DNA of 61,854 nt, filler included. It is 9 parts of 9 records of this genome, joined end to end, with 100 filler letters (N's around TTAATTAATTAA, not from the genome) between each part and the next. Parts side by side here need not be neighbours in the genome. Positions count along the whole stretch, not along the records: positions 20,984 to 26,600 come from SRR31156797_89045; 8 more parts are not named here. One strand, given 5' to 3'. A program made the position numbers and the translations under genes. Positions 3,097 to 53,326 of this stretch are shown here, in pieces; positions within the stretch are counted from its first letter, which is position 1; every line of letters starts with the position of its first letter. The notes beneath the pieces are model-generated. The model was not told the origin of the DNA, searched no databases, and saw nothing but the letters and a program-made list of their open reading frames with translations.

Positions 3097-3117
3097 CCAT
3101 TAACAAGGAATTTAGAA

Positions 3118-4260
3118 ATGAAAAACAGACGATTGATTGTGGTCGGCATGGTGGCTCTCATGGCATCGTGTTTGTTCGTTGCCCAACAGAGCCTGGCCCA
3201 GGCAGATGAGAACGGATCGGATCAGCCCCAATCTTCGGGTTCCCGTGGCGTGGTGCTGGAGCGGATCCACGGCATCAATTCCGCCATTGCCAAGAGTTAT
3301 CCCGGAACCGTCAAGGCTTCCAACACGGTAAAGCTTGCCTTCCGGGTGAGCGGCCCCCTGGTCCGGGTGAACATCAAGCCCGGCGATGCCGTGAAAAAAG
3401 GCCAGGTGCTCATGCAGATCGATACCCAGGATTACAAGGATAAGATCCAGGTGCTGGAGGCACAGATGGCGGGCTCCGTTTCCCAGTTGGAGACGGCAAA
3501 GCTTGATTTTGCCAGGGTGAAAAAACTCTTTTCCCAGAATGTGGTGCCCCAGGCCGATTACGACCATGCCATGAACGCGGTCAATACCCTCACCGCCTCG
3601 GTGGACGCCGTCAAGGCCCAGCTTCGAATCGCCCGGCACCAGCTTGGCTACACCTCCCTTCGGGCGCCCTATGACGGCATCATCACCCATCAGCTTATCG
3701 AAAACCACGAGATGGTCCAGGCCGGCAGGGTGGTGGTCGGGCTCCATGATATCTCCACCCTGGAGATCGAGATCAAAGTGCCTGAGAACGAAATCCTCAA
3801 CCACGGGCTCAAGAGTGGGGAAGCGGCCCTTGCCACCTTTCCTTCCCGGGCGGACCAGAAGTTCGATATTCAGCTCAAGGAGTGGAACACCGAGGCGGAC
3901 AGGATCACCCGCACCTATGCCATGGTTTTCACCATGCCGGCGCCCGGTGATTTCATGGTGCTGCCCGGCATGACCGCCGAGGTGGTCTGGTCAACCCCGG
4001 ACAAACAGCCAGAGATTATCACCATCCCGGCCAGGGCCCTTGTCACCGACAACAGCGGAGCGTCCGCGGTGTGGGTGTTTGACGAATCCTCCTCCACCGC
4101 CGTCAAGAAAAAGGTCGAGGTGGGCGGCCTGAACGGCTCTTCCCGCATTGTCGTCAAAAACGGGCTTTCCATTGGAGAGCGAATCGTTACCGAAGGTGTT
4201 GATTTTATCACCTCTACCATGAAGCTCAACGCCATTTCCATGAAAGGACGCGTTCAATGA
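3118..4260 (+). CDS. RND efflux periplasmic adaptor (MFP)
   Basis: Signal peptide, LAFRVSGPL..VKKGQVL lipoyl half-motif, LRAPYDGII, VLPGMTA; ATGA overlap with the next gene. Confidence 0.93.
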   Translation: MKNRRLIVVGMVALMASCLFVAQQSLAQADENGSDQPQSSGSRGVVLERIHGINSAIAKSYPGTVKASNTVKLAFRVSGPLVRVNIKPGDAVKKGQVLMQIDTQDYKDKIQVLEAQMAGSVSQLETAKLDFARVKKLFSQNVVPQADYDHAMNAVNTLTASVDAVKAQLRIARHQLGYTSLRAPYDGIITHQLIENHEMVQAGRVVVGLHDISTLEIEIKVPENEILNHGLKSGEAALATFPSRADQKFDIQLKEWNTEADRITRTYAMVFTMPAPGDFMVLPGMTAEVVWSTPDKQPEIITIPARALVTDNSGASAVWVFDESSSTAVKKKVEVGGLNGSSRIVVKNGLSIGERIVTEGVDFITSTMKLNAISMKGRVQ

Positions 4261-7200
4261 ATCCGGCTGAATTTGCCCTGAAAAACCGAACCTTTATGGT
4301 GGTGCTCACCATCCTGCTTTTGGGCGGCGGCATCCTCGCCTTTGAGAAACTCGGCCGGCTGGAGGATCCGACCTTTACCATCAAGACCGCCCTTGTGGTC
4401 ACCCAGTACCCCGGCGCCACCCCGCTGGAGGTGGAGGAGGAGGTCACCGATCTGGTGGAGGAGGCCATCAAGGCCATGGGCCAGGTCAAGGAGATCTATT
4501 CCACCTCCCAGGAGGGCCTCTCCCTCGTCTATGTGGACATGAAGGATGAGTTCCACAAGACCGAGCTGCCCCAGATCTGGGACGAACTCAGAAGAAAGGT
4601 CAATGACATCCAGAAGCGGCTGCCCCCGGGGGCCGGTCCCTCCATGGTCAACGACGATTTCGGTGATGTCTACGGCGTTTTTTTCGCCCTGACCGGGGAT
4701 AACTACACCCCGGCCCAGCTCAAGGACTACGCCGAATACCTGAAGAAAGAACTCCTGCTGTGCGATGAGGTCGCCAAGATCGATTTCTGGGGCATCCAGC
4801 AGGAGGTGATTTATATCGAGTTTGAACGGGCAAAGCTTGCGGGCCTTGGCATTCCGCCCCAGCTCATCTACCAGACCCTGAATCTCCAGAACGTTGTGGA
4901 GCCAAGCGGCCAGGTGGATGTGAACACCGAATACATGCGCATTTCTCCCACGGGTGAGTTCAAGAGCGAAACCATGATCGCGGATACCCTGATCGGCGGC
5001 GCACACGGCATGGTTCGCCTGGGGGATATCGCCACCATCCGCAGGGGGTATTACGAGCCTTCCAGAAATATCATGCGTTACAATGACAAGCCCTGCATCG
5101 GTATCGGCATCTCCACCGTGGACGGCGGCAACGTGATCACCATGGGGGATGCGGTCAAGAAGAAACTCCATGAGCTAGAGGGCCGGCAGCCGCCGGGCAT
5201 GGAGCTCAACACCATCTATTACCAGAGCCGGGTGGTGACCGAGTCGGTCAACGTCTTTCTCACCAACCTCGGGGAGGCCGTGGCCATTGTGGTGGTGCTC
5301 CTCATGCTCTTCATGGGATGGCAGAGCGGCATGCTCATCGGCATGATCCTGCTGCTGACCATCCTCGGTACCTTCATGGGCATGCTGCTCATGGACATCG
5401 ACCTTCAGAAAATTTCCCTTGGCGCGTTGATCCTGGCATTGGGCATGCTGGTTGACAACGCCATTGTCGTGGCCGACGGTATCCTTGTCCGGGTGGAGCG
5501 GGGCGAGGGCAGGGAAGAGGCCGCAAAAAAGGTGGTCCGGGAGAACCGGTGGCCCCTGCTGGGCGCCACCTTTGTGGCCATCCTGGCCTTTACCGCCATC
5601 GGGTATGCCCCCGGCAACGTGGGCGAGTTCTGCCGATCCCTTTTCCAGGTCATGGCCATCTCCCTGCTGCTCAGCTGGCTGTTTGCCGTGACCATCACCC
5701 CGCTCTTCTGTGTGTGGTTCCTGAAGGTTCCGGAAACAAAGGAGGGCGCGGACCCCTACGACAGGCCCATGTTCCGCGCCTACCGGCGCATGCTCCACCT
5801 GAGCCTCAGGGGGCGCTATATCACGGTGCTGGTCACCTTTGCGCTGCTGGCGGTTGCCATCCTCGGGTTCAAGTCCATTCCGTCCGCCTTTTTCCCGGGT
5901 TCCACCCAGCGCTACTTTTACGTGAACTACTGGAAACCCGAGGGCACCCATATCAAGCACACCGCCGACGACCTGGACCGCATCCAGGCGGACATCAGGA
6001 AGATGGAGGGGGTCACCAACATCACCACCTTTGTGGGGGAGGGGGCTTTACGGTTCCTGCTCACCTATGACTATCAGATCCCCAACACAAGCTACGGCCA
6101 GCTCCTGGTGGAGGTTGAGGATTATACCCAGGTGGACGGGCTTGTCAGTAAGGTCAACAATTATCTTGCGGCCAACTACCCTGATTCCGAACCCTATGCC
6201 CAGAAGATCATTTCCGGCCCGCCCATCACCTTCCTGGTGGAGGCGCGATTCCGGGGACCGGATATCGATGTGCTCCAGGATCTTGCGGCCCAGGCCAAGG
6301 CAATCATGCAGCAGACCCCCAACACCCGGGACGTCAGGACCGACTGGCGCCAGAAGATGCGGGTGATCCGGCCCCAGTTCTCAGAGACCCAGGCCCGCCA
6401 GGCCGGGGTAAGCCGGAGCGAGCTTGCCAAGGCGATCCGCTGGAATTTCAACGGCGTGATTGCAGGGCTCTACCGGGAGAGCGATGAAATGATCCCCATC
6501 ATCACCCGTCCGCCCAGGAACGAGCGGGATTCGGTGAACGACCTCAACAATGTCCAGGTTTACAGCGCCATGACCAACGCCTACATCCCCATCGGCCAGG
6601 TGGTGACCGAGGTGAAACCCGTGTGGGAGTGGCCCCTGATCAAGCGCCATGACCAGCAGCGGGCCGTCAAGGTCCAGTGCAACCCGGCCAAGGGCCTTGC
6701 CGCTCCCCTGCGCCTTGCCATGAAGGATAAAATCGAGGCATTGCCCCTTCCGTCCGGCTATACACTGGAGTGGGTGGGCGAGTTCGAGGCCTCGGCCGAT
6801 GCAAGGGGACCGTTGAAGAAAATCTTTCCCCTGTGCGCCCTTGGCATGTTCGTCATCGTGGTGGGGCTCTTCAACTCCATCCGCAGGCCCATGGTGATCT
6901 TCCTGACCGTGCCCCTCTCGGTCATGGGCATCGCGGCGGGACTGCTCTCCATGAATCTTGCCTTCGGCTTCATGTCCATCCTGGGATTCCTGGGGCTTTC
7001 CGGCATGCTGATCAAGAACGCCATCGTCCTGATCGAACAGGTGGAGATCCTCCTGCGGGAGGGATATCCGCCCTACAAGGCGGTCCTGGACAGCGCGGTC
7101 AGCCGTATGCGTCCGGTGGTCATGGCCTCGGGCACCACCATCCTCGGCATGCTTCCGTTGGTGTTTGATCCCATGTTCGCCACCATGGCCGTGACCATCA

Positions 7201-7298
7201 TGAGCGGTCTGTTTGTGGCGACCTTTTTGACCCTGATCATTGTTCCGGTACTCTACTGCCTGATGTACAGAATAAAATCCGACCACAACTACCTATGA
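4257..7298 (+). CDS. RND efflux permease (AcrB/AcrD/AcrF family)
   Basis: 1013 aa; GRLEDP, GMLVDNAIVV, GMLIKNAIVL and SRMRPV motifs. Confidence 0.95.
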   Translation: MNPAEFALKNRTFMVVLTILLLGGGILAFEKLGRLEDPTFTIKTALVVTQYPGATPLEVEEEVTDLVEEAIKAMGQVKEIYSTSQEGLSLVYVDMKDEFHKTELPQIWDELRRKVNDIQKRLPPGAGPSMVNDDFGDVYGVFFALTGDNYTPAQLKDYAEYLKKELLLCDEVAKIDFWGIQQEVIYIEFERAKLAGLGIPPQLIYQTLNLQNVVEPSGQVDVNTEYMRISPTGEFKSETMIADTLIGGAHGMVRLGDIATIRRGYYEPSRNIMRYNDKPCIGIGISTVDGGNVITMGDAVKKKLHELEGRQPPGMELNTIYYQSRVVTESVNVFLTNLGEAVAIVVVLLMLFMGWQSGMLIGMILLLTILGTFMGMLLMDIDLQKISLGALILALGMLVDNAIVVADGILVRVERGEGREEAAKKVVRENRWPLLGATFVAILAFTAIGYAPGNVGEFCRSLFQVMAISLLLSWLFAVTITPLFCVWFLKVPETKEGADPYDRPMFRAYRRMLHLSLRGRYITVLVTFALLAVAILGFKSIPSAFFPGSTQRYFYVNYWKPEGTHIKHTADDLDRIQADIRKMEGVTNITTFVGEGALRFLLTYDYQIPNTSYGQLLVEVEDYTQVDGLVSKVNNYLAANYPDSEPYAQKIISGPPITFLVEARFRGPDIDVLQDLAAQAKAIMQQTPNTRDVRTDWRQKMRVIRPQFSETQARQAGVSRSELAKAIRWNFNGVIAGLYRESDEMIPIITRPPRNERDSVNDLNNVQVYSAMTNAYIPIGQVVTEVKPVWEWPLIKRHDQQRAVKVQCNPAKGLAAPLRLAMKDKIEALPLPSGYTLEWVGEFEASADARGPLKKIFPLCALGMFVIVVGLFNSIRRPMVIFLTVPLSVMGIAAGLLSMNLAFGFMSILGFLGLSGMLIKNAIVLIEQVEILLREGYPPYKAVLDSAVSRMRPVVMASGTTILGMLPLVFDPMFATMAVTIMSGLFVATFLTLIIVPVLYCLMYRIKSDHNYL

Positions 7299-8671
7299 GG
7301 AATCCGATGATGAAACAGACCACACTTCTCCTTGTCCTCCTTCTCTGCTTCGCCTCCACGGGCGTTGCAGCACAAGGGCAAAAATCCGCCCTGGTGGTGC
7401 CCCAGGGAAGTTTGACCCTGGACGAGGCCTGGAAAACAGCCCTTGACAACTATCCGGGCATACAGGAGGCCAAACAGCGGATCGATGCCGCCAAGGCAGT
7501 GCTCAAGCAGGCCAAATCCGCATATCTTCCCACCGTTACGGCCCAGGGCGGTCTCAAGGCCAGGGATGTCACGGTCCAGCCGGACTGGAATCCCTATGAC
7601 CGGGTCGACGATTCCTTTAACGAGACGAGCGTGGGCATCCAGTTGACCTGGCTGCTCTTTGACGGGTTTTCAAGGGAGGCCAACACCCTTGCCGCCACCC
7701 ACGGCGTGGAACTGCGAAAAGAGCGCCTGGCCGATACCCGTCGCCTGCTCCTGAAGGCCGTTGCAACGGCTTACTACCAGGCCCAGCTGGCCGTCGAAGG
7801 CATGGTGGTGGCAAAGCAGAACCAGGAGTTCAACCAGATCCTGGAAAAGGATGCCCGGATCAAATGGCAGGTGGGTGCGGCCCCCGAGGCGGAAATGCTC
7901 AACTTCTCCGTAAAAGCCCTCCAGGCCGAGAGCGATTTCCAGGCGGCGGAGCGGGATTTCAAAATCGTGTGCGCGGCCCTGGCCCAGCTTATGGCCCTGC
8001 CCGAAGCAGAGCTGCCCGAAGACTTCTACCCGGTCCGGGTCACAAAGAGCGGGGAAGAGCCCCTTGAAACCTTTGAGAGCGACTATGAGTTCGCCCTGGC
8101 CCACCGTCCGGACCTCAAGGCCCTGGACGCGGGCCTGCTTGCCCAGGAGCAGCGCCTCAGGGCCGAGAAGGGAAATTACTCCCCGGACGTCGCCTTTATC
8201 ACCGGGGCCGGCTATCTCTTCCAGGACGGTATCACCGTCAAGGACCAGGAGGAGCACGAGACCTATGTGGGCGTTGTCGCCTCCTGGGACCTATATACCG
8301 GCGGCCGCAGAACGGGCAAGATCCGGGAAGTAAATGCGGAACTCCGGGCCCTGTCCAAACAGCGAGAGCAATTGCTGCTTGCCATGGGCTCCGCCATTCG
8401 CCAGAGCCGGGACCGGGCGGAAACCGCCTTTGAAACCTATGAACGCCAAAAGCGGACCCTGGAGCTGACCCAGCGGATCCGGGAGCATGTGGCAACCGCC
8501 TACCGGGAGGGCGCTCTGCCCCTGACCCGGCTCAACCAGGCCCAGACAGACCTTGTCCGGGCCTCCGGGGCCGTGGCCCTGACCTGGATCCAGTACCGGA
8601 TCGCCCTGGTCAACCTTGCGGCCGAGACCGGCCGGATCGATTTTCTGCCCGATTCCCCCCCAAGCAGCTAA
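7295..8671 (+). CDS. TolC family outer-membrane efflux protein
   Basis: Signal peptide, two OEP repeats (YLPTV..WLLFDG; YSPDV..WDLYTG), last gene of the MFP-RND operon. Confidence 0.9.
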   Translation: MRNPMMKQTTLLLVLLLCFASTGVAAQGQKSALVVPQGSLTLDEAWKTALDNYPGIQEAKQRIDAAKAVLKQAKSAYLPTVTAQGGLKARDVTVQPDWNPYDRVDDSFNETSVGIQLTWLLFDGFSREANTLAATHGVELRKERLADTRRLLLKAVATAYYQAQLAVEGMVVAKQNQEFNQILEKDARIKWQVGAAPEAEMLNFSVKALQAESDFQAAERDFKIVCAALAQLMALPEAELPEDFYPVRVTKSGEEPLETFESDYEFALAHRPDLKALDAGLLAQEQRLRAEKGNYSPDVAFITGAGYLFQDGITVKDQEEHETYVGVVASWDLYTGGRRTGKIREVNAELRALSKQREQLLLAMGSAIRQSRDRAETAFETYERQKRTLELTQRIREHVATAYREGALPLTRLNQAQTDLVRASGAVALTWIQYRIALVNLAAETGRIDFLPDSPPSS

Positions 8672-9669: not shown

Positions 9670-9769
9670 NNNNNNNNNNNNNNNNNNNNNNNNNNNNNNN
9701 NNNNNNNNNNNNNTTAATTAATTAANNNNNNNNNNNNNNNNNNNNNNNNNNNNNNNNNNNNNNNNNNNN
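9670..9769. other. Artificial contig linker
   Basis: N-run + TTAATTAATTAA (stops in all frames) + N-run, 100 bp. Confidence 0.98.
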
Positions 9770-20659: not shown

Positions 20660-20883
20660 ATGAGCAGGTTTCCGGACGATTTTATTTGGGGTACGGCGAC
20701 ATCAGCCTATCAGATTGAGGGTGCCTCCCGTGAGGACGGGCGTGGTGAATCAATCTGGGACCGCTTCTGTCACACCCCCGGGAACATACTGAACGGCGAT
20801 ACAGGCGACAGGGCCTGTGAGCACTATTATAAAATAGAAGAAGATCTGAACATTCTTCAGGATCTGGGTGTTGATTCTTACCG
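20660..20883 (+). CDS. GH1 beta-glucosidase, N-terminal fragment
   Basis: FPDDFIWGTATSAYQIEG GH1 signature; cut by the linker. Confidence 0.92.
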
Positions 20884-20983
20884 NNNNNNNNNNNNNNNNN
20901 NNNNNNNNNNNNNNNNNNNNNNNNNNNTTAATTAATTAANNNNNNNNNNNNNNNNNNNNNNNNNNNNNNNNNNNNNNNNNNNN
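20884..20983. other. Artificial contig linker
   Basis: N-run + TTAATTAATTAA + N-run. Confidence 0.98.
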
Positions 20984-20984
20984 C

Positions 20985-23900
20985 TTCGGGAAGCCCGTGG
21001 CGGGTGGCAGGGTTCACATTACTGCATGGGAGGCCGACGTTGAGCAGCGTGTGTTTACAGAAAAGCATCTGACCCTGGACGAACATGGATATGTCGAGTT
21101 TGACCTGACGTGTCCCGACACACTTGTGGGTCGAGAGCAGAACTCGGGGGATGCAGAGTTCCGCCTGGTCTTTGAGATTCAGGATACTGCAGGACAGACG
21201 ATTGAACGGAATGTCAGCAGGATCATCAGCGCACAGCCCGTGAAGCTGACCCTGATTCCCGAAAGCGGGAAACTGGCCCAGGGGCTTGAGAATCATATTT
21301 ATGCGTTCGCGACGTATCCGGATGGGAAGCCGGCAGAAGTCCGTCTTGTGATTTCCGGGCTTGACGATGAAGTCATGACGTCGCCATCGGGTGTTGCGCA
21401 GTTTGAACTGATACCGCAGGAGTCGGTTGTGGATTTGACGATTCGTGCGATTGACGCTGAAGGGCGATCGGTAACGGAGCAGTTTACGCTGAAATCTCAT
21501 CGCCCAGGGGAGTGTTTCGTCCTCCGCACAGACAAGGCTGTGTATGCCGGCGGTGAGACCATTCAGATCACAGTTTTCGCCAGTGGCAAACAGCCCGTGT
21601 ATGTTGATCTGATCCAGGACGACCAGACGATTCTGACGGAGTCGATCAATGTTTCTCAATCCGGCATCGGTGAATATGCATTTGACATCCCCCCGGATCT
21701 GTCGGGGACGATTGAGCTGAACGCCTATCGATACGGGAGACAAGGACTTGCGGTTCGACAATCTCGTGTTCTGCAGATTACCGCAGCGGACAACCTGGCG
21801 ATTTCGGTTGAGACGGATAAGCCCGAATACCGCCCGGGCGAAGAAGCGAAACTGACCTTCAGGATTACGGATGAAAACGGTGATCCCGTACCCGGTGCTC
21901 TGAGTCTGTCAGCCGTGGATGAAGCGGTATTCGGAGTGCAAGGCACCCGACCGGGCCTGGAGAATACGTTTTTCAATCTTGAGCAGGAAATTCTCAAACC
22001 GATCTACGCTCTTTATCCATGGTCGCCGGATCTGGATACAAGCTTTGGGCATGAAGACCGGGTACTGCTGAATAAGGCATTGATGGCGTATGCCAGCACT
22101 CATCTTGATTCCTCGATGATGACGCGAGATGAAGTATTTCAGATCATGCTTGATCAAGGGGACATTGTCCCTCGCCAGCTGGAGTTCCTGAAAAAATACG
22201 ATATCAACGAGCTTCTCGAGCAAGGTAGTTTTTCTGAAGACTTTGTCCAGTTGATGAAACAGACGGGCTCCAATCGAGTTCAATCTTCAACCTGGCCAGA
22301 CAAGGAGAGATCGGCACAAGTCAGCTCCCAGGAATGGAAGAACCTGTTCGGCACGATCTGGCTTATTCTTGCGATCACCGGAGGAAGCGTCCTGTTTGTA
22401 ATCGTTGCTGTTCGTACCGGACTTTTCTGGCTTCTATTTTTCCTTGCATCGTGTGCATTACTGATTTCCATCATGCTTCCGTCACTGAGTCGAGCTAGAA
22501 GCTCATCGAAATCAATGATGGCGAAGGCAACCTTGAAAGGACTCGATACCACTCTGAAGATCATGCAGAACGAAGGTTTTACCCTAAACAATCCTCAATC
22601 GGGTGAGGGTGGTGACTCTGTTCGTGTTCGCCAGTGGTTCCCGGAGACGCTTTTGTGGCGGCCGGAGTTGATTACTGATGATAACGGTCATGCACAGCTT
22701 TCACTACCGCTGGCTGACTCGATCACATCCTGGCATCTTTCGGCCAGTGCGGTGTCCGGTGAAGGGCAGCTTGGTGGAATGACTTCCGGGATCCGGGTCT
22801 TCCAGCCGTTCTTCGTCGACCTGGATCTTCCTGTTGCACTGACTCGCGGCGATGAGATTTCCGTCCCGGCCGTGGTGTATAACTACAAGGACACCGCGCA
22901 GACCATTCAGCTCGAACTGGCAAAAGCAGAAGGTTTCATTCAGCTTTGCGAAAGCACGCAAGAGGTTTCCCTTGAAGCTGGTGAGATCGGAGCAGTCTAC
23001 TTCCGCCTCCGTGCGGACCAGGTTGGAACCCAATCGATTGAGATTATTGCCCGTAGTGAAGGAACGGATGCGGATGCTGTTCGTCGCGATGTTGATATTG
23101 TGCCGGACGGAAGAAAGATCGAAAAGGTATTCAATGGGACCCTGTACCCGGATGGTTCCATTCCGATTCAACTTCCGGACAATGCCATCGACGGCAGTGC
23201 AAAACTGCTTGTGAAGTTCTACCCGTCGACCTTCAGTCAGCTTCTGGAAGGACTGGATGGGATCTTCAAACGTCCGTATGGGTGTTTCGAACAGACTTCC
23301 TCGACAACGTACCCGAATATCCTGGCACTGGACTACCTGATGCAAACCGGCAAGTCCGCACCGGAAGTCGAGGCGAAAGCCCGCCAGTTCATTCATCTTG
23401 GATACCAGCGGCTGCTTGGATTCGAAGTGTCCGGGGGCGGATTCGACTGGTTCGGCAGACCACCTGCCAACGTGACGCTTACGGGTTACGGCTTGCTGGA
23501 ATTCCAGGACATGGCGAAGGTTCATGACGTTGATCCGGCACTGATCGAACGGACGCGTCAGTGGCTTCTGAATCATCAAAAGGGTGATGGCTCCTGGTCA
23601 CCGGCCAATTCCGGTCCATGGCATCAGAACCCGACTCAGCGAGACAATGCAAGGCTCAGCACAACCGCGTATATCGCCTGGGCTGTGTTCCAGAACGGAG
23701 CCGGCCAGGAGGATGTCTTTACGACGAAAAGATTTCTCCTGAGTCACAAACCAAGAGACATCCAGGATCCATACACGCTTGCTCTTGTGACGAACGCCCT
23801 GATCGAAATGGGAGAAAACAGATCGATCATCCGGCCGTACATCCAGAGATTGCAGTCGCTTGCCCGATATACCCAGGGCAGCAAACAGGCATACTGGACC

Positions 23901-24746
23901 ATACAGAAAAACGGAAGGACAGCGTTTTATGGACGAGGACGTACAGGCAACATTGAAGCCACCGCGCTGGCCACGCTTGCGCTGATCAAAGCAAACGAGG
24001 CACATAAGCTCAGGAATTCTGCCCTGACCTGGTTGACCGAGCAGCGTGACGGCAACGGGACGTGGGGCAGTACCCAGGCCACTGTTCTCGCTCTGAAAGC
24101 CCTGATTGCCGGAACCGGTAAACCAACTGGCGAGCAAGTGCGTCGCAAACTCGACATTACTTTTGACGGAAAGGGCATCCGTAACTTGAACCTGGCTCCG
24201 GATCAGAACGATGTGTTGCAGTTGATTTCACTTTCGGATCAGGTCACTACCGGGACTCATACCCTGGTTCTGGCAGACAGAACCAATACCAATACCGGCT
24301 ACCAGGTCGAGTTCAGTTATCATGTTCCGGGCGAAAAGCCCAAAGATGTTGACCCTTCGCTTCGGATTGACCTGGAGTACGATCGGACGGATCTCGAAGT
24401 CCGCCAGACCGTCAATGCAACGGCCCGGATCATGAACACGAAAACACAATCCATTCCGATGGCGATTGTGGATCTTCCGGTTCCGGCAGGCTTTGCACCC
24501 GACACGTCTGCCCTTGACGCGATGAAGAAAGAGGGGTTGATCGGGAAATACCAGGTGACGCCTCGCAGCATTATCGTATATCTTCGCTCCCTGGAGCCTG
24601 AGAAGGAGATCGTGATTCCTTATCGTCTGATCGCAACGATGCCGGTGGATGTTCACGTTCGCCCCGCGAAAGTATACGAATACTATAACCCAGAACAGGA
24701 AGCAGAAAGCAAGCCGACAGCACTGCGAGTCGCACAGACGGCTTGA
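20985..24746 (+). CDS. Alpha-2-macroglobulin family thioester protein (5' truncated) with an internal membrane/pilin-like insert
   Basis: Frame open from the contig edge (FGKPV); TDKPEYRPGE, AVDEAV, VRQWFPETLLW, DSITSW, thioester PYGCFEQ, WGSTQAT, VYEYYNPE. Confidence 0.9.
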   Translation, partial: FGKPVAGGRVHITAWEADVEQRVFTEKHLTLDEHGYVEFDLTCPDTLVGREQNSGDAEFRLVFEIQDTAGQTIERNVSRIISAQPVKLTLIPESGKLAQGLENHIYAFATYPDGKPAEVRLVISGLDDEVMTSPSGVAQFELIPQESVVDLTIRAIDAEGRSVTEQFTLKSHRPGECFVLRTDKAVYAGGETIQITVFASGKQPVYVDLIQDDQTILTESINVSQSGIGEYAFDIPPDLSGTIELNAYRYGRQGLAVRQSRVLQITAADNLAISVETDKPEYRPGEEAKLTFRITDENGDPVPGALSLSAVDEAVFGVQGTRPGLENTFFNLEQEILKPIYALYPWSPDLDTSFGHEDRVLLNKALMAYASTHLDSSMMTRDEVFQIMLDQGDIVPRQLEFLKKYDINELLEQGSFSEDFVQLMKQTGSNRVQSSTWPDKERSAQVSSQEWKNLFGTIWLILAITGGSVLFVIVAVRTGLFWLLFFLASCALLISIMLPSLSRARSSSKSMMAKATLKGLDTTLKIMQNEGFTLNNPQSGEGGDSVRVRQWFPETLLWRPELITDDNGHAQLSLPLADSITSWHLSASAVSGEGQLGGMTSGIRVFQPFFVDLDLPVALTRGDEISVPAVVYNYKDTAQTIQLELAKAEGFIQLCESTQEVSLEAGEIGAVYFRLRADQVGTQSIEIIARSEGTDADAVRRDVDIVPDGRKIEKVFNGTLYPDGSIPIQLPDNAIDGSAKLLVKFYPSTFSQLLEGLDGIFKRPYGCFEQTSSTTYPNILALDYLMQTGKSAPEVEAKARQFIHLGYQRLLGFEVSGGGFDWFGRPPANVTLTGYGLLEFQDMAKVHDVDPALIERTRQWLLNHQKGDGSWSPANSGPWHQNPTQRDNARLSTTAYIAWAVFQNGAGQEDVFTTKRFLLSHKPRDIQDPYTLALVTNALIEMGENRSIIRPYIQRLQSLARYTQGSKQAYWTIQKNGRTAFYGRGRTGNIEATALATLALIKANEAHKLRNSALTWLTEQRDGNGTWGSTQATVLALKALIAGTGKPTGEQVRRKLDITFDGKGIRNLNLAPDQNDVLQLISLSDQVTTGTHTLVLADRTNTNTGYQVEFSYHVPGEKPKDVDPSLRIDLEYDRTDLEVRQTVNATARIMNTKTQSIPMAIVDLPVPAGFAPDTSALDAMKKEGLIGKYQVTPRSIIVYLRSLEPEKEIVIPYRLIATMPVDVHVRPAKVYEYYNPEQEAESKPTALRVAQTA

Positions 24747-24769
24747 ACCATTTCGATCACAATACCAAC

Positions 24770-24803
24770 AGCCCGGTGGAGCACAGCTTCACCGGGTTTT
24801 TTA
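24770..24803 (+). terminator. Intrinsic terminator after A2M
   Basis: GCCCGGTGGAGC-ACA-GCTTCACCGGGT followed by a T-tract. Confidence 0.8.
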
Positions 24804-24839
24804 TCTGCAGTACAAGGTCAGAAAAAAGGTGGGGCAGGA

Positions 24840-26600
24840 TTATTCTTTTTCGTTTCCGTTGACGCCGTTGTTGCTGCGGACGGCCTCCTTTGTAGGATTC
24901 GCACCGCCTGCTTCGGGCTGGAATTCGGGGACAAGGTTGCGGAGGTTCGCGACGATCTCTTCCTTGTTGCCTTCATCAGCAAGGCCGATGAGCTGCTGCA
25001 TGCTGGCACAGAGAGCATCCCAATCTTCGGGGCGGTGGGTCCATGCGTAGATCTTGGGGTGCTTGGTTTTGCCCATGTCTTCACCAGCGACGGAAAGCTC
25101 TTCGAAGAGTTTCTCGCCCGGGCGGACGCCGGAGAACTGGATGTCGATGTCGACATCGGGACGAAGACCGCTGAGCTGGATCATGTCTCGTGCGAGGTCG
25201 ACGATCTTGACCGGATCGCCCATGTCGAGCACGTAGATTTCCCCGCCGTTGCCCATCGTCCCGGCTTCGAGAACCAGCTGGGACGCCTCGGGGATGGTCA
25301 TGAAATACCGGATCATCTCCGGGTGGGTCACCGTGACCGGGCCGCCGTTGGCGATCTGCTTTTTGAAGATCGGAACAACAGAGCCACTGCTGCCCAGGAC
25401 ATTACCGAAGCGAACCGTGACGAACTGGGTATCGCTGCGATGGTTGAGCTGCTGAACGTAGAGCTCAGCCACGCGCTTGGAGCAGCCCATGATACTCGTC
25501 GGGTTGACGGCCTTGTCGGTCGAGATCATGACCATTTTCTTGACGCCGCACTCGACGGCAGCATCAGCAATGGTTCTCGTTCCGACGACATTATTCTTGA
25601 CCGCTTCGCCGAAGTTGATTTCCATCATCGGCACATGTTTGTGTGCTGCTGCGTGGAAGACAGCGGAGGGTGTTTCTTCCCAGAAGATGGTCTTGATGCG
25701 TTTGGCGTCGCAGATGTCCGCGATGCGTGGAACAATGTCCAGGTCCGGATGCTTGCGGCGGAGTTCGCGGTCGATCTCGAAGAGATTGTTTTCCGCCTGC
25801 TCAAGCAGAACGAGACGCTTGGGCCCGAACTTGGCAATCTGGCGGCACATTTCCGAGCCGATACTTCCGCCAGCACCGGTAACGAGAATCCGCTTGCCTG
25901 CGAGGATGTTTCCGATGGCATCGACATCCAGCGAAACGGGAGGACGACCGAGAAGGTCTTCGATCGATACGTCACGGACCTTGCTGATTTCAACGCGACC
26001 GGAGATGAGGTCGCTGACTTCCGGAATTGTGCGGAAGCTGACGCTCATCCCCTGGCACTGTTCGACGATCCGGCGAATCTCTCGTGGAGGCGCACCAGGC
26101 AAAGCGATCAACACTTCTTCGACTTCATTTTCCTCGATCACTTCGCGGATCTTCGAAGTAGAGCCGAGGACTTCAATTCCATGAATGCGATTGCGCAGGC
26201 GACTGGGTTCGTCATCGAGAAAACCGATCACTTCCTGGTGTTCGCCTGAACGGATAATTTCCCGAACGACGGTTTCCCCCGCGCGATCCGCGCCAACGAC
26301 CAGCACTCTTCGCCTTAATATATCATCCGGAATGCGTCGGACTTCTTCGTGGTAGAGCCTCCAGCCCATGCGTGTAACCGCAACGAGACCGATCGTCCCC
26401 ACCATGTCCGACAGAAAAACGGCAGCCTGACGAAAGCCAATGTTATGCGTGTTTGTCCAGTCATCCAGAAGGTTGGGTCTGAGCGATGCAACCGTGAAGA
26501 ATGCGACCATCAGGAACATCGAGCCTACATACGACGCACTGGCCATCCCCAGGAGATCCCGCAGACCCACGTAGCGCCAGGAAATTCGATACTGGCGGAA
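24840..26600 (-). CDS. Polysaccharide biosynthesis NDP-sugar 4,6-dehydratase (CapD/PglF/WbpM type), 5' truncated
   Basis: IEDLLGRPPV, VTGAGGSIGSE, HAAAHKHVP, STDKAVNP, VRFGNVLGSSGSV, RPGEKLFEEL. Confidence 0.93.
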   Translation of the reverse strand, partial: FRQYRISWRYVGLRDLLGMASASYVGSMFLMVAFFTVASLRPNLLDDWTNTHNIGFRQAAVFLSDMVGTIGLVAVTRMGWRLYHEEVRRIPDDILRRRVLVVGADRAGETVVREIIRSGEHQEVIGFLDDEPSRLRNRIHGIEVLGSTSKIREVIEENEVEEVLIALPGAPPREIRRIVEQCQGMSVSFRTIPEVSDLISGRVEISKVRDVSIEDLLGRPPVSLDVDAIGNILAGKRILVTGAGGSIGSEMCRQIAKFGPKRLVLLEQAENNLFEIDRELRRKHPDLDIVPRIADICDAKRIKTIFWEETPSAVFHAAAHKHVPMMEINFGEAVKNNVVGTRTIADAAVECGVKKMVMISTDKAVNPTSIMGCSKRVAELYVQQLNHRSDTQFVTVRFGNVLGSSGSVVPIFKKQIANGGPVTVTHPEMIRYFMTIPEASQLVLEAGTMGNGGEIYVLDMGDPVKIVDLARDMIQLSGLRPDVDIDIQFSGVRPGEKLFEELSVAGEDMGKTKHPKIYAWTHRPEDWDALCASMQQLIGLADEGNKEEIVANLRNLVPEFQPEAGGANPTKEAVRSNNGVNGNEKE

Positions 26601-26700
26601 NNNNNNNNNNNNNNNNNNNNNNNNNNNNNNNNNNNNNNNNNNNNTTAATTAATTAANNNNNNNNNNNNNNNNNNNNNNNNNNNNNNNNNNNNNNNNNNNN
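26601..26700. other. Artificial contig linker
   Basis: N-run + TTAATTAATTAA + N-run. Confidence 0.98.
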
Positions 26701-33979: not shown

Positions 33980-34079
33980 NNNNNNNNNNNNNNNNNNNNN
34001 NNNNNNNNNNNNNNNNNNNNNNNTTAATTAATTAANNNNNNNNNNNNNNNNNNNNNNNNNNNNNNNNNNNNNNNNNNNN
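33980..34079. other. Artificial contig linker
   Basis: N-run + TTAATTAATTAA + N-run. Confidence 0.98.
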
Positions 34080-34239: not shown

Positions 34240-34857
34240 ATGACTTCAACAAAAGACAAAATTTTCGACGCCGCTGAACTTCTCTTTGCCGAATGCGGCA
34301 TAGACGGCGCCTCATTGCGAGCAATTACCAATAAAGCCGGAGTAAACCTTGGCAGCATTCACTATTACTTCGGCAGCAAAACAAATTTGCTTAAAGAGCT
34401 TATTAAAGCCAAGGTTGGGGAATTCAGTGAAGAAAAAATCAATGAATTAAATGAGTTTATAAAAAGCGGAGAGAGAAATTTTAAAAAACTGTGGCTCATA
34501 CACGCTCGAGGATCATTGAAAATGGGAGCAGAAAAGCCGAATATGCTGCGAATTGCCGGTCATCTCGTTTGGTCCCCAAAAAATGAATACCGGGAATTCT
34601 TGAGTACAATGGCTTCAGAATTCGAGGAAGCTTTTGTGAGGGAGGTTTTGAGTTATTTACCAAAGGATTGCATCCGGGAAGCAGAAAGACGTTGCCGTAT
34701 AATGATGTCAATGATTTTTATGACTTCCATTGACGCTTATAGATTCCATCTTACCATGCATAGACTTCGCCTCAAAATCGAGCCTGATGAATTGGCCAAT
34801 GAAATGGCTGAGATAGCATCTTCTGCAATGCAGAAATTTATGCCCGGTAATGCCTGA
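34240..34857 (+). CDS. TetR/AcrR family regulator
   Basis: TKDKIFDAAELLFAECGIDGASLRAITNKAGVNLGSIHYYFGSK HTH. Confidence 0.92.
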   Translation: MTSTKDKIFDAAELLFAECGIDGASLRAITNKAGVNLGSIHYYFGSKTNLLKELIKAKVGEFSEEKINELNEFIKSGERNFKKLWLIHARGSLKMGAEKPNMLRIAGHLVWSPKNEYREFLSTMASEFEEAFVREVLSYLPKDCIREAERRCRIMMSMIFMTSIDAYRFHLTMHRLRLKIEPDELANEMAEIASSAMQKFMPGNA

Positions 34858-34977
34858 ATAATCTAACCAACTCAAATCAGGATTGCCCGACGAAACAATC
34901 CACAGCATCTCCCGGCGCGCAATGTTGCCGTAGAAGCCGGGAAGATATGAACTCAATGCCAGGCGGGAGTTTAAGTT

Positions 34978-36069
34978 ATGAATAAAAAAAACGGTATACT
35001 AATAGTCTTGATAATATGCTTTGCCCTGATGTCTCTCACCGGTTGCGAGGAAGAGGCGGCGCAAGATAATAAAAAAGTCATTCGCCCTATAAAGGTGATG
35101 ACCATCGGCAAGAACGCCGACCAATCCACGGCCAAATATCCCGGCAAGGTAGAAGCCGGTCGCAAGGTGGACTTTTCGTTCAGGGTGCCCGGTCCTTTGG
35201 TTAAACTTCCCATCAGGCCCGGTTTGATAGTTAAACAGGGTGAAATGCTAGCTCAAATCGATCCCCGGGATTATGAGTTCGCCCTGAATAACGCCAGGGC
35301 GGCTTATAACGACGCTATGAAAAATTTTGAACGGTACCGGAAATTGATGGCCAAGGGCGCCGTATCCAAATCCGCTTACGACAGCAGCCAAAGTGCATAT
35401 TTAAGAACCAAAGCCGCCCTGGATCAGGCTAACGCCGCCCTAAAGGATACAAAAATTTATGCGCCCTTTGACGGCGTAATTGCAAAAACCTATGTGGAAA
35501 ACCATCAGGACGTTCAGGCAAAACAACCCATTGCCAGTCTTCAAAGCATGACCAACCTGGAGGTCGTGGTTCAGATTCCTGAACAGGACGTTCTCTTAAG
35601 CGGCGCCAGGGAAGAATACGAAACCAAGGTTCGACTCGAGGCGCTGCCCGGTGAGGAATTTCCGGCCAGGGTAAAGGAATTTACTACCGAAGCCGACCCG
35701 ACGACGCAGACTTTCAAGGCTACCTTTATTTTGGAGCATCACGAGAATTTTAATATTTTACCCGGTATGACCGCGGAAGTAATTCTTCGCCGGAAATTGT
35801 CCGATTCCCCAAAAGATTCAATATTAATAATTCCGGTGGAATCCGTTCTGGTTGATGAGAACAACAATCAATATATCTGGAAGCTGAAAAAGGAAAACAA
35901 CACGGTGCATCGTGTTCCCGTCAAAGTCCAGACCTTGACCGGGGATTGCATCGTGGTAACCAAGGGACTGGCCGTGGGAGACACAATTGCAGTGGCCGGG
36001 GTTCATTATCTCCATGAAGGCATGGAAGTATCAATTTTCAAAACCGAACAAGGGCGGTGCGGCCAATGA
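34978..36069 (+). CDS. RND efflux periplasmic adaptor lipoprotein (MFP)
   Basis: Lipobox LTGC, FSFRVPGPL, IYAPFDGVI, ILPGMTA. Confidence 0.93.
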   Translation: MNKKNGILIVLIICFALMSLTGCEEEAAQDNKKVIRPIKVMTIGKNADQSTAKYPGKVEAGRKVDFSFRVPGPLVKLPIRPGLIVKQGEMLAQIDPRDYEFALNNARAAYNDAMKNFERYRKLMAKGAVSKSAYDSSQSAYLRTKAALDQANAALKDTKIYAPFDGVIAKTYVENHQDVQAKQPIASLQSMTNLEVVVQIPEQDVLLSGAREEYETKVRLEALPGEEFPARVKEFTTEADPTTQTFKATFILEHHENFNILPGMTAEVILRRKLSDSPKDSILIIPVESVLVDENNNQYIWKLKKENNTVHRVPVKVQTLTGDCIVVTKGLAVGDTIAVAGVHYLHEGMEVSIFKTEQGRCGQ

Positions 36070-39000
36070 ATCCCGCTCGACTTGCTATTGAAAAAAACGT
36101 TATCACCATCGTCTTTACACTGATGATTTTAATCGGCGGCGCCGTGTCGTTCTTTCAGTTGGGACGACTGGAAGATCCTGAATTCACAATCAAAACAGCC
36201 GTGGTCACAACAATGTACCCGGGCGCCGCCGCTCACGAAGTCGAAGATGAGGTCACCGAAGTGCTGGAAACCGAAATCCAGCAATTGGCCCAACTTAAAC
36301 GCTTGCAATCAAGGTCCATGAGAGGCCTTTCCATTATTAATGTCGAAATGAAGGACGAATTCGACGGTTCCGAACTGCCCCAGGTCTGGGATGAACTGAG
36401 GCGCAAGGTCAGCGCGGCTCAGGCAAAGCTGCCGCCGGGCGCCGGTCCGTCCTCTGTTAACGATGATTACGGCGACGTATACGGAATCTTTTTCGCCGTA
36501 ACCGGAGACGGCTACTCATATGCTGAAACCAAGGAGGTTGTGGATAAAATTCGCAAGGAACTGCTTTTGGTGGAAGATGTAGCCAAAGTGGCATTTTACG
36601 GCGACCAGTCCGAATGTATTTACGTGGAAATGTCAAGCCGGCGGATGTCTCAGTTAGGTGTGTCCCCAGCACAAATATACGGCGCCCTGGCCCAAAAAAA
36701 CCTGGTTAATAATTCCGGCCGGGTCCTGGTTGGCAGCGAGTACATTCCAATTGACCTTACCGGCGATTTTAAAACGGCCGAACAGTTGGGAAGCATTCTG
36801 ATCCGGGGAGGAAAAAGCGGCGCATTGATACATCTGAGAGATGTGGCGGAAATCAAGAGAGGCTATATTGATCCGCCCAGGAACATGCTCAGGTTCAATG
36901 GGCAGCCCGCCATAGGCCTCGGCGTCTCAATCACTTCCGACGGCAACGTTGTTCGCATGGGTCGCGCTGTTAAAAAGCGTCTCAAGGAACTGGAATCGGA
37001 AATTCCAGTCGGCATCGAAATGAATGTTATTACTTTTCAATCCGACCTGGTGGAAAAGTCGGTAAACGGCTTTCTGATTAACCTTGCCGAAGCCGTAATT
37101 ATTGTAATTGTTGTTTTGATGATATTTATGGGCCTGCGCAGCGGCCTGATAATCGGCGGCGTACTGTTACTGACCATTGCAGCCGCGTTTGTGCTGATGG
37201 CCGTTCATGGCATCAACCTGCAGAGGGTTTCACTGGGCGCACTTGTTTTGGCTCTGGGCATGCTTGTGGATAACGCCATCGTTGTTACGGAAGGCATACT
37301 GGTGAGAAAAAGCCGGGGCATGGACAGTCTGGAGGCTTCGGCCCTGACCGTGAAACAGACGGCGCTGCCGCTTCTGGGCGCAACGGCCGTGGCCATACTG
37401 GCCTTTGCCGCCCTGGGACTGTCGAATAATTCCGCCGGCGAATTCTGCAACTCGCTTTTCTATGTAATGCTGTATTCCTTGCTGGCCAGTTGGGTGTTGG
37501 CTGTAACCGTCACGCCTTACATCTGTCACATTTTTCTAAAACCCAAACAACTCGAAAAGGACGCCGACCCCTACAAAGGACTCCTTTTTACAGTGTATAA
37601 GCCTGTCTTGAAATTCGCCCTCAACTACCGGCTGCTGACGGTTGTCGGCATGGGCGGGCTGCTGGTGATTTCCATTCATGGATTTGGATCCGTCAAACAG
37701 AGTTTTTTTCCTTCTTCCACCCGGCCGGCTTTCCTGGTCAATTATTGGCTGCCCCAGGGAACTCACATTGAGCGGACCGCCGAAGACTTGAAAGCAATGG
37801 AGAAGTATGTAAAAAAACTGCCCGGCGTCAAATCTGTTACCGCCTTCATCGGACAGGGCGGCTTGCGATATTACCTTGCCTTGTCCCCTGAATTTCCAAA
37901 TACTGCTTACGGCCAGCTAAAAGTAGTTGTTGATGATTACAGAAAGATTGATGAACTGATAAAACTGGTTCAAAAAGAGGCTTCCCGCAAATACCCGGAC
38001 GCCCTTTGCTTCACCCAAAAATTTGAATTCGGGCCCGGGGCCTCGGGCAAAATCAGGGCCAGGTTCACCGGGCCGGATTCGAATGTCCTGCGGTCGCTGG
38101 CCGGCAAGGCCAAGATGATTATGAGAGAAAATCCAAACGCCCGCGACATCCGGCACGACTGGCGGCAACGGGTGAAGGTGATCAGACCGGTGCTGGCCGA
38201 AGCACAGGCTGAAAGAAACGGTCTTGGACCCATGGAGGTGGCGGAGGCGATTAATGAGTCTTTTTCCGGTCGATCCATCGGAGTTTTTCGCCATGGCGAC
38301 GATCTGCTGCCAATCATCGCGCGTCCTCCTCAAAACGAACGTTCCAGTGTGGACGCCCTGGCCGGTCGGCAGATCTGGAGCCCCCTGGCGGGACGAATGA
38401 TTCCACTGGGCCAGGTAGTGTCTCATTATGAAACTGACTGGGAAGACGATATCATCAGGCGCAGAAATCGTAAGCGCACCATCGAGGCGATTTGCGATCC
38501 CATTTCCGGTACGGCCAGTGAATTACTGGCCGAAGTGAGGCCCAGAATAGAAGCCATCGAGCTTCCGCCCGGATATGAACTGGAATGGGGCGGCGAATAC
38601 GAAGACTCAAAAGACGCCAACGAAAGCATTTTCGCCGGCCTTCCGGTGACAATGATCCTTATTGTTATGGTCGTTATCGCCCTGTTTAACGCAATCCGGC
38701 AGCCGCTGATAATATTCCTGAGCCTTCCCTTGATGGTGATCGGCGTAACCGGAGGCTTACTGGCGACAGGTTTGCCAATGGGCTTCATGGCCGTGTTGGG
38801 ATTTATCAGTCTGACCGGCATGCTCATCAAGAATGCAGTGGTCCTGATCGACCAGATTGACCTTGATATCCGTGAAGGCAAACCCAAAGCCGAGGCTATC
38901 CGGGATGCATCCATCAGCCGCGTCCGTCCGGTGCTCATGGCGGCCGTCACAACGGTCCTGGGAATGATGCCCCTGCTGCAGGACGCCTTTTACAGCAGTA

Positions 39001-39107
39001 TGGCCGTCACTATCATGGGAGGCCTGACTTTTGGAACCATACTCACATTGATATTCATTCCCGTGCTGTACTCCCTGTTCTTCAGGGCGGGGAAAACAGC
39101 CGATTGA
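36066..39107 (+). CDS. RND efflux permease (same subfamily as 4257-7298)
   Basis: MNPA start overlapping the MFP stop (ATGA); GRLEDPEF, GMLVDNAIVV, GMLIKNAVVL, SRVRPV. Confidence 0.95.
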   Translation: MNPARLAIEKNVITIVFTLMILIGGAVSFFQLGRLEDPEFTIKTAVVTTMYPGAAAHEVEDEVTEVLETEIQQLAQLKRLQSRSMRGLSIINVEMKDEFDGSELPQVWDELRRKVSAAQAKLPPGAGPSSVNDDYGDVYGIFFAVTGDGYSYAETKEVVDKIRKELLLVEDVAKVAFYGDQSECIYVEMSSRRMSQLGVSPAQIYGALAQKNLVNNSGRVLVGSEYIPIDLTGDFKTAEQLGSILIRGGKSGALIHLRDVAEIKRGYIDPPRNMLRFNGQPAIGLGVSITSDGNVVRMGRAVKKRLKELESEIPVGIEMNVITFQSDLVEKSVNGFLINLAEAVIIVIVVLMIFMGLRSGLIIGGVLLLTIAAAFVLMAVHGINLQRVSLGALVLALGMLVDNAIVVTEGILVRKSRGMDSLEASALTVKQTALPLLGATAVAILAFAALGLSNNSAGEFCNSLFYVMLYSLLASWVLAVTVTPYICHIFLKPKQLEKDADPYKGLLFTVYKPVLKFALNYRLLTVVGMGGLLVISIHGFGSVKQSFFPSSTRPAFLVNYWLPQGTHIERTAEDLKAMEKYVKKLPGVKSVTAFIGQGGLRYYLALSPEFPNTAYGQLKVVVDDYRKIDELIKLVQKEASRKYPDALCFTQKFEFGPGASGKIRARFTGPDSNVLRSLAGKAKMIMRENPNARDIRHDWRQRVKVIRPVLAEAQAERNGLGPMEVAEAINESFSGRSIGVFRHGDDLLPIIARPPQNERSSVDALAGRQIWSPLAGRMIPLGQVVSHYETDWEDDIIRRRNRKRTIEAICDPISGTASELLAEVRPRIEAIELPPGYELEWGGEYEDSKDANESIFAGLPVTMILIVMVVIALFNAIRQPLIIFLSLPLMVIGVTGGLLATGLPMGFMAVLGFISLTGMLIKNAVVLIDQIDLDIREGKPKAEAIRDASISRVRPVLMAAVTTVLGMMPLLQDAFYSSMAVTIMGGLTFGTILTLIFIPVLYSLFFRAGKTAD

Positions 39108-39295: not shown

Positions 39296-39395
39296 NNNNN
39301 NNNNNNNNNNNNNNNNNNNNNNNNNNNNNNNNNNNNNNNTTAATTAATTAANNNNNNNNNNNNNNNNNNNNNNNNNNNNNNNNNNNNNNNNNNNN
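39296..39395. other. Artificial contig linker
   Basis: N-run + TTAATTAATTAA + N-run. Confidence 0.98.
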
Positions 39396-53309: not shown

Positions 53310-53326
53310 ATCTAATCACCCCCTGA

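Follow-up and report, generated by a model that had tools for sequence, protein, structure and literature searches.

A predicted membrane hairpin with a pilin-like helix at the bait position of a bacterial thioester alpha-2-macroglobulin

The A2M gene and the insert at its bait position

The window analyzed here, a stretch of DNA of 61,854 nucleotides made of nine short contigs, carries at 20985..24746 a partial coding sequence for a thioester protein of the alpha-2-macroglobulin (A2M) family, as judged from the reading frame, Pfam matches and the length of homologues. The gene and all its features described below lie on the plus strand. The contig hosting the gene covers positions 20984-26600 only, and an artificial joiner (20884-20983) adjoins its 5' side; since the contig starts at 20984, the 5' end of the gene is missing. 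The open frame 20997-24746 is uninterrupted, and encodes 1249 amino acids (aa). The product, called P0002, has residues numbered from the GTG at 20997 in the GVG frame, and is short of about 350 N-terminal residues relative to homologues of 1600 aa.

Four Pfam domains of the A2M family were identified in P0002, all scoring above cut-off and following each other in the A2M order. A2M_BRD (PF07703), in the region of macroglobulin (MG) domains located N-terminally to the insert, spans 21522..21932 (residues 176-312), and was modeled by AlphaFold2 (AF2) as beta domains with a predicted local distance difference test score (pLDDT) of ~90. It is followed by the A2M domain (PF00207; 22647..22919, residues 551-641), the thioester domain TED_complement (PF07678; 23232..24104, residues 746-1036), and the C-terminal domain of the A2M receptor-binding type (PF07677, A2M_recep; 24459..24707, residues 1155-1237). 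The same order of domains, together with a CxEQ thioester, is found in eukaryotic A2M, complement C3-C5, CD109 and insect TEP1. The thioester motif G762-C763-F764-E765-Q766 (23280..23294) is invariant across 90 aligned family members, and the PYGCFEQ sequence (residues 760-766) is intact, as stated in a preliminary description of this DNA. In a Foldseek search with the AF2 model the top matches were C4, C3, CD109, A2ML1 and C5; A2M and ECAM were also retrieved. Eukaryotic A2Ms are the best matches to P0002 among solved structures by sequence as by fold: in a phmmer search of the PDB, human A2M was matched at E 4e-52, Sa-A2M at 3e-9, ECAM at 2e-7. P0002 is a thioester-bearing, eukaryote-like member of the A2M family, and its family is neither of the pilin nor of the ECAM type.

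About 240 residues separate A2M_BRD from the RVRQWFPETLLW motif (22623..22658, residues 543-554). In the phmmer alignment, residues 543-1236 of P0002 pair with residues 730-1459 of human A2M (6tav_A), and RVRQWFPETLLW falls on TVRKYFPETWIW (730-741), which immediately follows the human bait, and on position 13 of the C3b alpha' chain. The human A2M bait region presumably corresponds to residues 690-728. Because PF07703 ends at residue 312, PF00207 starts at 551, and RVRQWFPETLLW aligns to the post-bait TVRKYFPETWIW, the insert resides at the bait/anaphylatoxin position, and the location formerly assigned to it is confirmed. Extra modules at this site are precedented, as the anaphylatoxin domain and the processing site of C3 both map there.

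The insert is made by several modules. Its pre-membrane part (21933..22343, residues 313-449) is conserved and mostly helical, and includes a PGLE..FF.LEQE.L.P.Y motif common to soluble relatives. Next come membrane helix A, LFGTIWLILAITGGSVLFVIVAV (22344..22412, residues 450-472), as viewed by hydropathy and AF2, a two-residue turn, R473-T474 (22413..22418), as read in the translation and in the AF2 model, and membrane helix B (22419..22478, residues 475-494). The latter is the equivalent of the pilin alpha-1N segment (pilin positions 2-21), and lacks both G-1 and E5. A basic amphipathic helix, PSLSRARSSSKSMMAKATLKGLDTTLKIM (22479..22571, residues 495-525), corresponding to pilin alpha-1C from P22 onwards, and a variable linker, QNEGFTLNNPQSGEGGDSV (22572..22622, residues 526-542), complete the insert. 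The linker, a candidate for the true bait, has low pLDDT at residues 531-538. In the family, linkers measure 15 aa (median) and are 50% P/A/S/G; in P0002 the same measure gives FTLNNPQSGEGGDSV.

The two hydrophobic helices followed by a further helix directly before RVRQWFPETLLW, described earlier, were recovered in full. Translation of 22344-22650 gives exactly the peptide originally quoted, and in Kyte-Doolittle plots (19-residue window) residues 454-472 and 476-494 score 2.60 and 2.61, respectively, against values of at most 1.02 elsewhere in P0002. The AF2 model (residues 170-720, 37-row alignment, mean pLDDT 79.1, predicted template modeling score (pTM) 0.48) features two long helices, residues 428-474 and 477-525, separated by a two-residue turn, preceded by several short helices and followed by the low-confidence linker. 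The MG domains flanking the insert have pLDDT ~90 on both sides. Helix B and the amphipathic helix are modeled as a single continuous helix of 49 residues. The bait site of P0002 is thus mostly a structured, helical insert including a membrane hairpin, and the flexible-looking part is confined to some 17 residues (526-542).

Helix A would run from the outside to the inside, and the R473-T474 turn would be cytoplasmic. Insertion in the membrane and topology are read from hydropathy, a model of pTM 0.48 and the parity of helix counts among relatives (see below), and the distribution of basic residues weighs against the orientation proposed: five K/R residues are found in the flank following helix B and one in the turn, counter to the positive-inside rule. 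The same basic flank follows the membrane helix in real pilins. As a whole, we hold with high confidence that a hairpin of two membrane-length helices resides at the bait position of a thioester A2M, and that its helix B is of pilin ancestry.

Pilin ancestry of helix B

The relationship of helix B to pilins emerges from homologues. Scans of the isolated P0002 insert against Pfam and NCBIfam revealed no pilin family and no N_methyl match at E<=10, and retrieved only weak unrelated membrane families, so that the link to pilins required profiles. In several homologues the DUF1559 family (PF07596) was detected above its cut-off of 23.3 bits (P0109, 50.4 bits; P0077, 44.2; P0024, 25.4; L007, 51.9). 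Matches begin directly after the hairpin turn, and cover positions 1-47 of the 268 of the profile. A precomputed PF07596 match is present, by hand count, in 33 of the 120 homologues listed, and 10 of the 120 are labeled 'pseudopilin PulG' by JGI.

Profile comparisons were performed with hhalign, against a template built from the N-termini of 19 genuine DUF1559 proteins of one Singulisphaera genome. Helix B and the next helix from the subclade including P0002, which is of the LPS type (31 rows), matched the template with a probability of 98.4% (E 9.8e-15) over 52 columns, in register with pilin positions 3-54; the LPA-type subclade (50 rows) matched with 99.7% (E 3.7e-27). Controls gave 0.5% with the reversed query, 8.8% and 6.3% with the helix-A region, and 0.4% with the N-terminal helix region. 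An insert-only profile, run against 1.84 billion representatives, matched 64,519 proteins at E<=1e-3 (193 at 1e-10). The bulk of these align over the helix-B part alone, at their own N-termini, and in a sample of 25, PF07596 was found in 23 and N_methyl above cut-off in 20. Helix B and the amphipathic helix appear, on this profile evidence, to derive from alpha-1 of a DUF1559/type II pseudopilin-like protein. The pilin likeness of the two helices, claimed at first from the single sequence, holds at the level of the subclade and of homologues above the PF07596 cut-off, and not from P0002 alone. Two points weigh against this derivation, in addition to the silence of the isolated insert. The P0002 sequence by itself is weakly pilin-like (62.7%, E 7e-5), and the template, drawn from a single genome, is low in diversity. 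Singulisphaera genome G001, which lies behind locus L006, contains 148 DUF1559 matches, and such a pool of paralogues may keep the pilin-like helix of the A2Ms similar through recombination.

In the pilin register, the proline of the LP(S/A) motif corresponds to P22. Sorting of 109 unique inserts on this basis identified E5 in 46, G14 in 38, G-1 in 19, and G-1 and E5 together in 6. The hallmarks of alpha-1, a hydrophobic alpha-1N of ~21 residues, a proline near position 22 and an amphipathic alpha-1C, are all present in P0002. The class III signal-peptide site G(-1)|F(+1)...E(+5) is not: R is found at -1, TGLFW at positions 1-5 (T at +1, W at +5), and A at 14. Absence of a canonical G|FxxxE prepilin site had been noted earlier, and the residues at -1 and +5 bear this out. 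The module is moreover internal (residues 475-525) and located behind helix A, rather than N-terminal, after a short basic leader and ahead of a globular pilin domain. In the subclade including P0002, E5 and G14 are lost along with the AREAARR motif. Pairing of E5 with a basic residue 3-4 positions upstream was considered and is unsupported, as such a residue occurs in 26 of the 46 inserts having E5 and in 28 of the 63 lacking it.

Helix B has a pilin-like predicted topology, with the N-terminal side in the cytoplasm, and a prepilin peptidase might cut between the two helices. This would yield two A2M chains held together by the shared MG6 domain, as in furin-processed C3, in which cleavage occurs at the same position. 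The residues required coexist in the 6 inserts mentioned above, as G|ITVVE in L018/P0116 and G|SRVIE in L044; P0029 reads G|ITLVE. In these six members a split by the peptidase is possible. Prepilin-peptidase cleavage requires G-1, which is found in only 19 of the 109 inserts. Since both G-1 and E5 are absent from P0002 (R-1, W+5), processing of this protein is unlikely as judged from its residues, and the leader would be without precedent, being composed of a 23-residue membrane helix and an outside domain of 750 residues. For P0002 a two-chain form is hence regarded as highly improbable.

Distribution and variants of the insert

A search restricted to residues 310-560 of P0002 gave 1210 candidates, 206 of which passed E<=1e-3. 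Among the 120 matches listed, 118 cover the region fully, most measure ~1600 aa, and all the organisms named belong to planctomycete groups. In an alignment of 90 sequences the hairpin, the LP(S/A) motif and the next helix are collinear. A scan of genomes identified at least 591 relatives, and 80 loci were kept for analysis. With the VDE(S/A)V(F/Y) and FPET motifs taken as the two ends of the insert, 56 loci could be scored; by the patterns used, nine of the 80 lack the anchor motif, and 15 lack FPET or the thioester motif.

Loci L001-L042 are almost all labeled Planctomycetota. Two helices were found in the insert in 30 of the 33 scorable ones, and all 30 loci of the two-helix type belong to this set. 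The survey of planctomycete A2Ms suggested in the preliminary description thus retrieved the two-helix insert at most scorable loci, and the insert in its entirety is conserved as a feature of a family found almost exclusively in Planctomycetota. Inserts with six membrane helices were found at 8 loci (L033, L048, L054, L060, L063, L067, L068, L072), and 15 loci have no membrane helix in the insert. Odd numbers, observed in L017 (3), L029 (1) and L044 (5), are probably threshold noise. The helix count is even in 38 of the 41 membrane-type inserts, and both halves of the A2M would therefore be placed on the same side of the membrane.

Six-helix relatives, like the five-helix L044, are labeled Chloroflexi, Verrucomicrobia, Myxococcales and others; in L044, L067 and L027 a pilin-like helix closes the insert. 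Helix-free inserts, found at loci labeled Armatimonadota, Acidobacteria and others, contain the sequence DPWG..Y....S.GPDG..GT.DDI. The T2SSG/GspG family (PF08334) was detected in 8 of 13 such inserts at or above the 21-bit cut-off (L043, L046, L047, L050, L053, L055, L061, L077, all non-planctomycete), and below it in 3. A CarboxypepD_reg domain was observed in the bait-position insert of the helix-free loci L074 and L079, both labeled Acidobacteriota; T2SSG scores 13.7 bits in L074, and has no match in L079. Several subclades have lost all pilin signatures, yet keep two helices, as the Gemmataceae loci L026, L032 and L036.

In a quick, unrooted tree built on the C-terminal 720 residues, the two-helix clade (32 rows, P0002 included) is split from the rest with a Shimodaira-Hasegawa-like approximate likelihood ratio (SH-aLRT) support of 99. 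L067, L027 and L044, which combine the pilin helix with several membrane helices, form a clade on the opposite side. Pilin-bearing relatives thus occur on both sides of the tree, and the pseudopilin-derived module at the bait site appears, from this distribution, to be older than the planctomycete clade.

The pilin-like helix could still be functional as such, docking on the platform of the type II secretion system (T2SS) or of type IV pili (T4P), or packing with DUF1559 pseudopilins, so that the A2M would be located at the machinery, or act as a pilin decoy or guard. The alpha-1 signature is well kept in an old clade spanning orders, with PF07596 scores up to 52 bits on 47 residues and E5 and G14 retained in 46 and 38 of the 109 inserts, soluble relatives keep at this position a globular domain resembling GspG, and DUF1559 genes are very numerous in these genomes. 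The loss of E5, G14 and AREAARR in the subclade of P0002 and of the entire signature in several lineages speaks against such a role, and the recombination with many paralogues invoked above could by itself maintain the similarity. No T2SS or T4P genes were seen beside the gene, the downstream genes of relatives being only sized and oriented. Triggering by intramembrane or pilin-targeting proteases, put forward in the preliminary description together with the decoy role and the T2SS/T4P association, gained like these no direct support from the data. Retention of a pilin function is considered improbable.

Creation of the insert by a chimeric assembly or by a frameshifted junction was also taken into account, because the contigs that make up the window are short and of low coverage. 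One public DNA run, X1, and no RNA run was found to contain the stretch. Contigs from X1 are 100% identical to it, with no joints or variants, at a depth of 1-6 and for a share of 0.73; they are short, and X1 probably represents the source sample itself, hence not an independent support. An artifact is ruled out by the open frame and by the 206 relatives collinear over the stretch, to which the identity of the X1 contigs may be added, though possibly from the same sample. Its probability is negligible.

Anti-sigma domains, sigma factor genes and a model for the family

The N-terminal region missing from P0002 was analyzed in relatives. The signature H..D.YLH..L....A..V..HC..C..C opens the full-length members, and a membrane helix comes next, near residue 87. 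The zf-HC2 family matches 20 of 30 N-termini (best E 6e-8), and an N-terminal profile matches RsiW (E 2.2e-6, over the full domain), RslA (1.3e-4), ChrR (0.02) and DdvA (0.08). The top match of this profile, a designed repeat protein, was rejected as spurious. The N-terminal membrane helix was found in 81 of 88 full-length members; 63 of the 88 have exactly one N-terminal and two hairpin helices, and 15 more feature one extra weak segment. The formerly proposed anchoring of the A2M through its bait must be revised on this ground: the hairpin does reside at the bait, but full-length homologues are also held by a membrane helix that follows the anti-sigma domain.

At 24 of 32 loci of the L001-L042 set, the A2M gene is directly preceded, on the same strand, by an open reading frame (ORF) carrying Sigma70_r2 and Sigma70_r4_2. 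In NCBIfam these ORFs pass only the model of the extracytoplasmic function (ECF) sigma factor superfamily, TIGR02937, and no named subgroup. On the other side of the tree, L054 and L067, two loci of the six-helix type, were the only ones at which an upstream sigma gene was detected, and none was found at the 11 other loci with a candidate ORF (6 with soluble inserts, 5 unscored). Sigma genes were thus found only at loci having membrane-type inserts, which ties the insertion of the bait in the membrane to the regulator. In P0077 the N-terminus itself matches Sigma70_r2, perhaps because the gene caller merged the sigma and A2M ORFs there.

Several data weigh against extending these features to all members, and to P0002 in particular. 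No upstream sigma ORF was found at 8 of the 32 loci (L006, L008, L013, L021, L022, L026, L027, L039), the wrong ORF having been examined in L021 and L022. The A2M of L008 seems to start at the membrane helix, without the anti-sigma domain. The closest full-length relatives of P0002, P0003 and P0007, have lost the zinc-binding cysteines of zf-HC2. Lastly, anti-sigma domain and sigma gene are both known from homologues alone, as the P0002 gene starts at a contig end. P0002 probably belongs to the family of anti-sigma-fused A2Ms.

The hairpin might be a mere membrane anchor, holding the mid-part of a periplasmic trap at the inner membrane as the lipid anchor of ECAM does; the anti-sigma domain of relatives would then work independently of protease attack, or be absent from P0002. 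According to PMC5764988, the bacterial A2Ms known so far are retained at the inner membrane in other ways. Subclades devoid of any pilin signature keep two helices, as the Gemmataceae loci cited above, and the six-helix and helix-free relatives show that the inserted sequence is interchangeable. However, as full-length relatives are already anchored by an N-terminal membrane helix, an additional anchor at the bait calls for an explanation. Sigma genes, moreover, were found solely at membrane-type loci (24 of L001-L042, plus L054 and L067), and at 0 of the 11 other-side loci. A plain anchor is considered a rather unlikely explanation.

We favor, with moderate confidence, a model in which the membrane-tethered thioester A2M forms the outside part of an ECF anti-sigma factor, acting both as a protease trap and as a sensor. 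The full protein, of ~1600 residues, would be encoded behind the ECF sigma factor gene, and would have at its start an RsiW-like anti-sigma domain, located in the cytoplasm, and then a single membrane helix. In the resulting three-helix topology, the N-terminus would be inside and MG domains 1-6 outside; the hairpin would dip in and out of the membrane, and the pilin-like helix, the short P/A/S/G-rich linker and the half made by MG7, CUB, the thioester domain and the receptor-binding domain would follow, with both halves of the A2M in the periplasm. The protein would be a protease trap tethered to the inner membrane, and at the same time the sensor of an ECF sigma/anti-sigma pair. A protease entering the periplasm would cut the exposed linker; the cut A2M would rearrange, and its thioester would capture the protease.

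The signaling step, viewed from homologues and from established knowledge on A2Ms and ECF factors, is more tentative. Through the hairpin and the N-terminal helix, the change at the membrane-anchored bait would reach the anti-sigma domain, as a shift in conformation or by means of subsequent proteolysis; the sigma factor would then be freed, and a defence response turned on. A cut in the linker leaves the outside domain of helix 1 unshortened, and a classical site-1/site-2 cascade is therefore not a direct consequence of it, which counts against the scheme. It is rather doubtful, and here only speculated, that the family be a complement-like sensor with a transcriptional output, its bait pinned to the membrane by a hairpin recruited from a pseudopilin, in which members having G-1 and E5 are also split by prepilin peptidase at the C3-processing site, and GspG-type and six-helix variants are alternative outcomes of one and the same insertion of a pseudopilin.

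The features of P0002 and its relatives can be compared with those of known systems. Two types of bacterial A2Ms, both passive periplasmic protease traps, are described in PMC5764988. Type I proteins, such as ECAM of E. coli and Sa-A2M of Salmonella, have a thioester and are encoded in an operon with PBP1c; type II proteins lack the thioester, and are represented by MagD of the Pseudomonas mag operon (PMC5764988). A thioester trap located in the periplasm at the inner membrane, as proposed here, is also the picture drawn for the type I proteins ECAM/YfhM and Sa-A2M in PMC5764988 and PMC4498604. Type I proteins are distant in sequence from P0002; the bait of ECAM is soluble, and its gene is part of the PBP1c operon. 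Relatives of P0002 feature an anti-sigma domain and a membrane helix behind an ECF sigma gene, rather than a lipoprotein signal, and the gene downstream of P0002 is a convergent Polysacc_synt_2 dehydratase gene rather than a PBP1c operon member. MagD also works at the inner membrane, in a multi-protein setting, but according to the same source (PMC5764988) it has neither thioester nor membrane helix and belongs to a six-gene mag operon, in contrast to P0002, which has a thioester and membrane helices of its own.

The module of P0002 differs from that of eukaryotic A2Ms, as it is a membrane hairpin with an apparently pilin-derived helix rather than a soluble bait or an anaphylatoxin domain; P0002 is in addition bacterial and predicted to be membrane-bound, and its relatives are fused to an anti-sigma domain. 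With DUF1559 proteins and pseudopilins the subclade of P0002 shares helix B and the next helix, in register with pilin positions 3-54, and with GspG (PF08334) soluble relatives share a T2SSG-like domain at the same site. Unlike in DUF1559 proteins, the module is internal in the A2Ms, follows a membrane helix and not a basic leader, corresponds to profile positions 1-47 of 268, and in P0002 lacks G-1 and E5. Relatives and class I zinc-binding anti-sigma factors, such as RsiW of B. subtilis and RslA of M. tuberculosis, have in common a zf-HC2-type N-terminus, one membrane helix, and an upstream ECF sigma gene. The outside domain of RsiW is small, and its regulated proteolysis inactivates the factor; in the relatives of P0002 the outside domain is instead an A2M of 1500 residues, which is predicted to re-enter the membrane twice.

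The sole neighbor of the A2M gene on its contig is the convergent gene for the dehydratase (Polysacc_synt_2/PseB-like; 24840-26570, opposite strand). The nine contigs are separated by eight joiners (9670-9769, 20884-20983, 26601-26700, 33980-34079, 39296-39395, 44509-44608, 49920-50019, 55178-55277), all of the form N44-TTAATTAATTAA-N44. As the contigs are artificially joined, gene neighborhood across joiners is meaningless. The GC content of the contigs spans 39% to 60%, and the bin behind them may be mixed. The contig preceding that of the A2M ends with a gene start, MSRFPDDFIWGTATSAYQIEGA (20661-20883, plus strand), cut by the contig end, which from its motif we take to be family-1 glycoside hydrolase-like. 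Another contig carries, at 50068-51393 on the minus strand, a gene for a trypsin-family serine protease with a DUF4215 repeat, adjoining an Fe-only hydrogenase cluster (51510-54960). Operons encoding a TetR regulator, a membrane-fusion protein and an AcrB-type RND pump reside on two different contigs (2446-8671 and 34240-39107), the former including also an outer-membrane factor.

In a literature search that left subscription journals and the supplements of ECF classifications outside its scope, neither A2Ms containing a pseudopilin or membrane insert nor A2M anti-sigma factors were found to be described. To our knowledge, no A2M or complement-family protein with a membrane-embedded bait region has been reported before, and we know of no earlier case of a pilin helix reused inside another protein. 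The coupling to an ECF sigma/anti-sigma pair, the truncation of the gene by the contig end, and the GspG-like and six-helix variants had all been missed in the preliminary description. The automatic labels 'pseudopilin PulG' and 'DUF1559 domain-containing protein', carried by some members, are misleading and can be corrected.

The family represents a natural domain insertion at the hotspot where complement proteins carry the anaphylatoxin domain. If the model is true, the family would join the bacterial A2Ms as a third type, eukaryote-like and with its trap connected to gene regulation, and it offers a directly testable scheme for how bacteria may sense foreign proteases.

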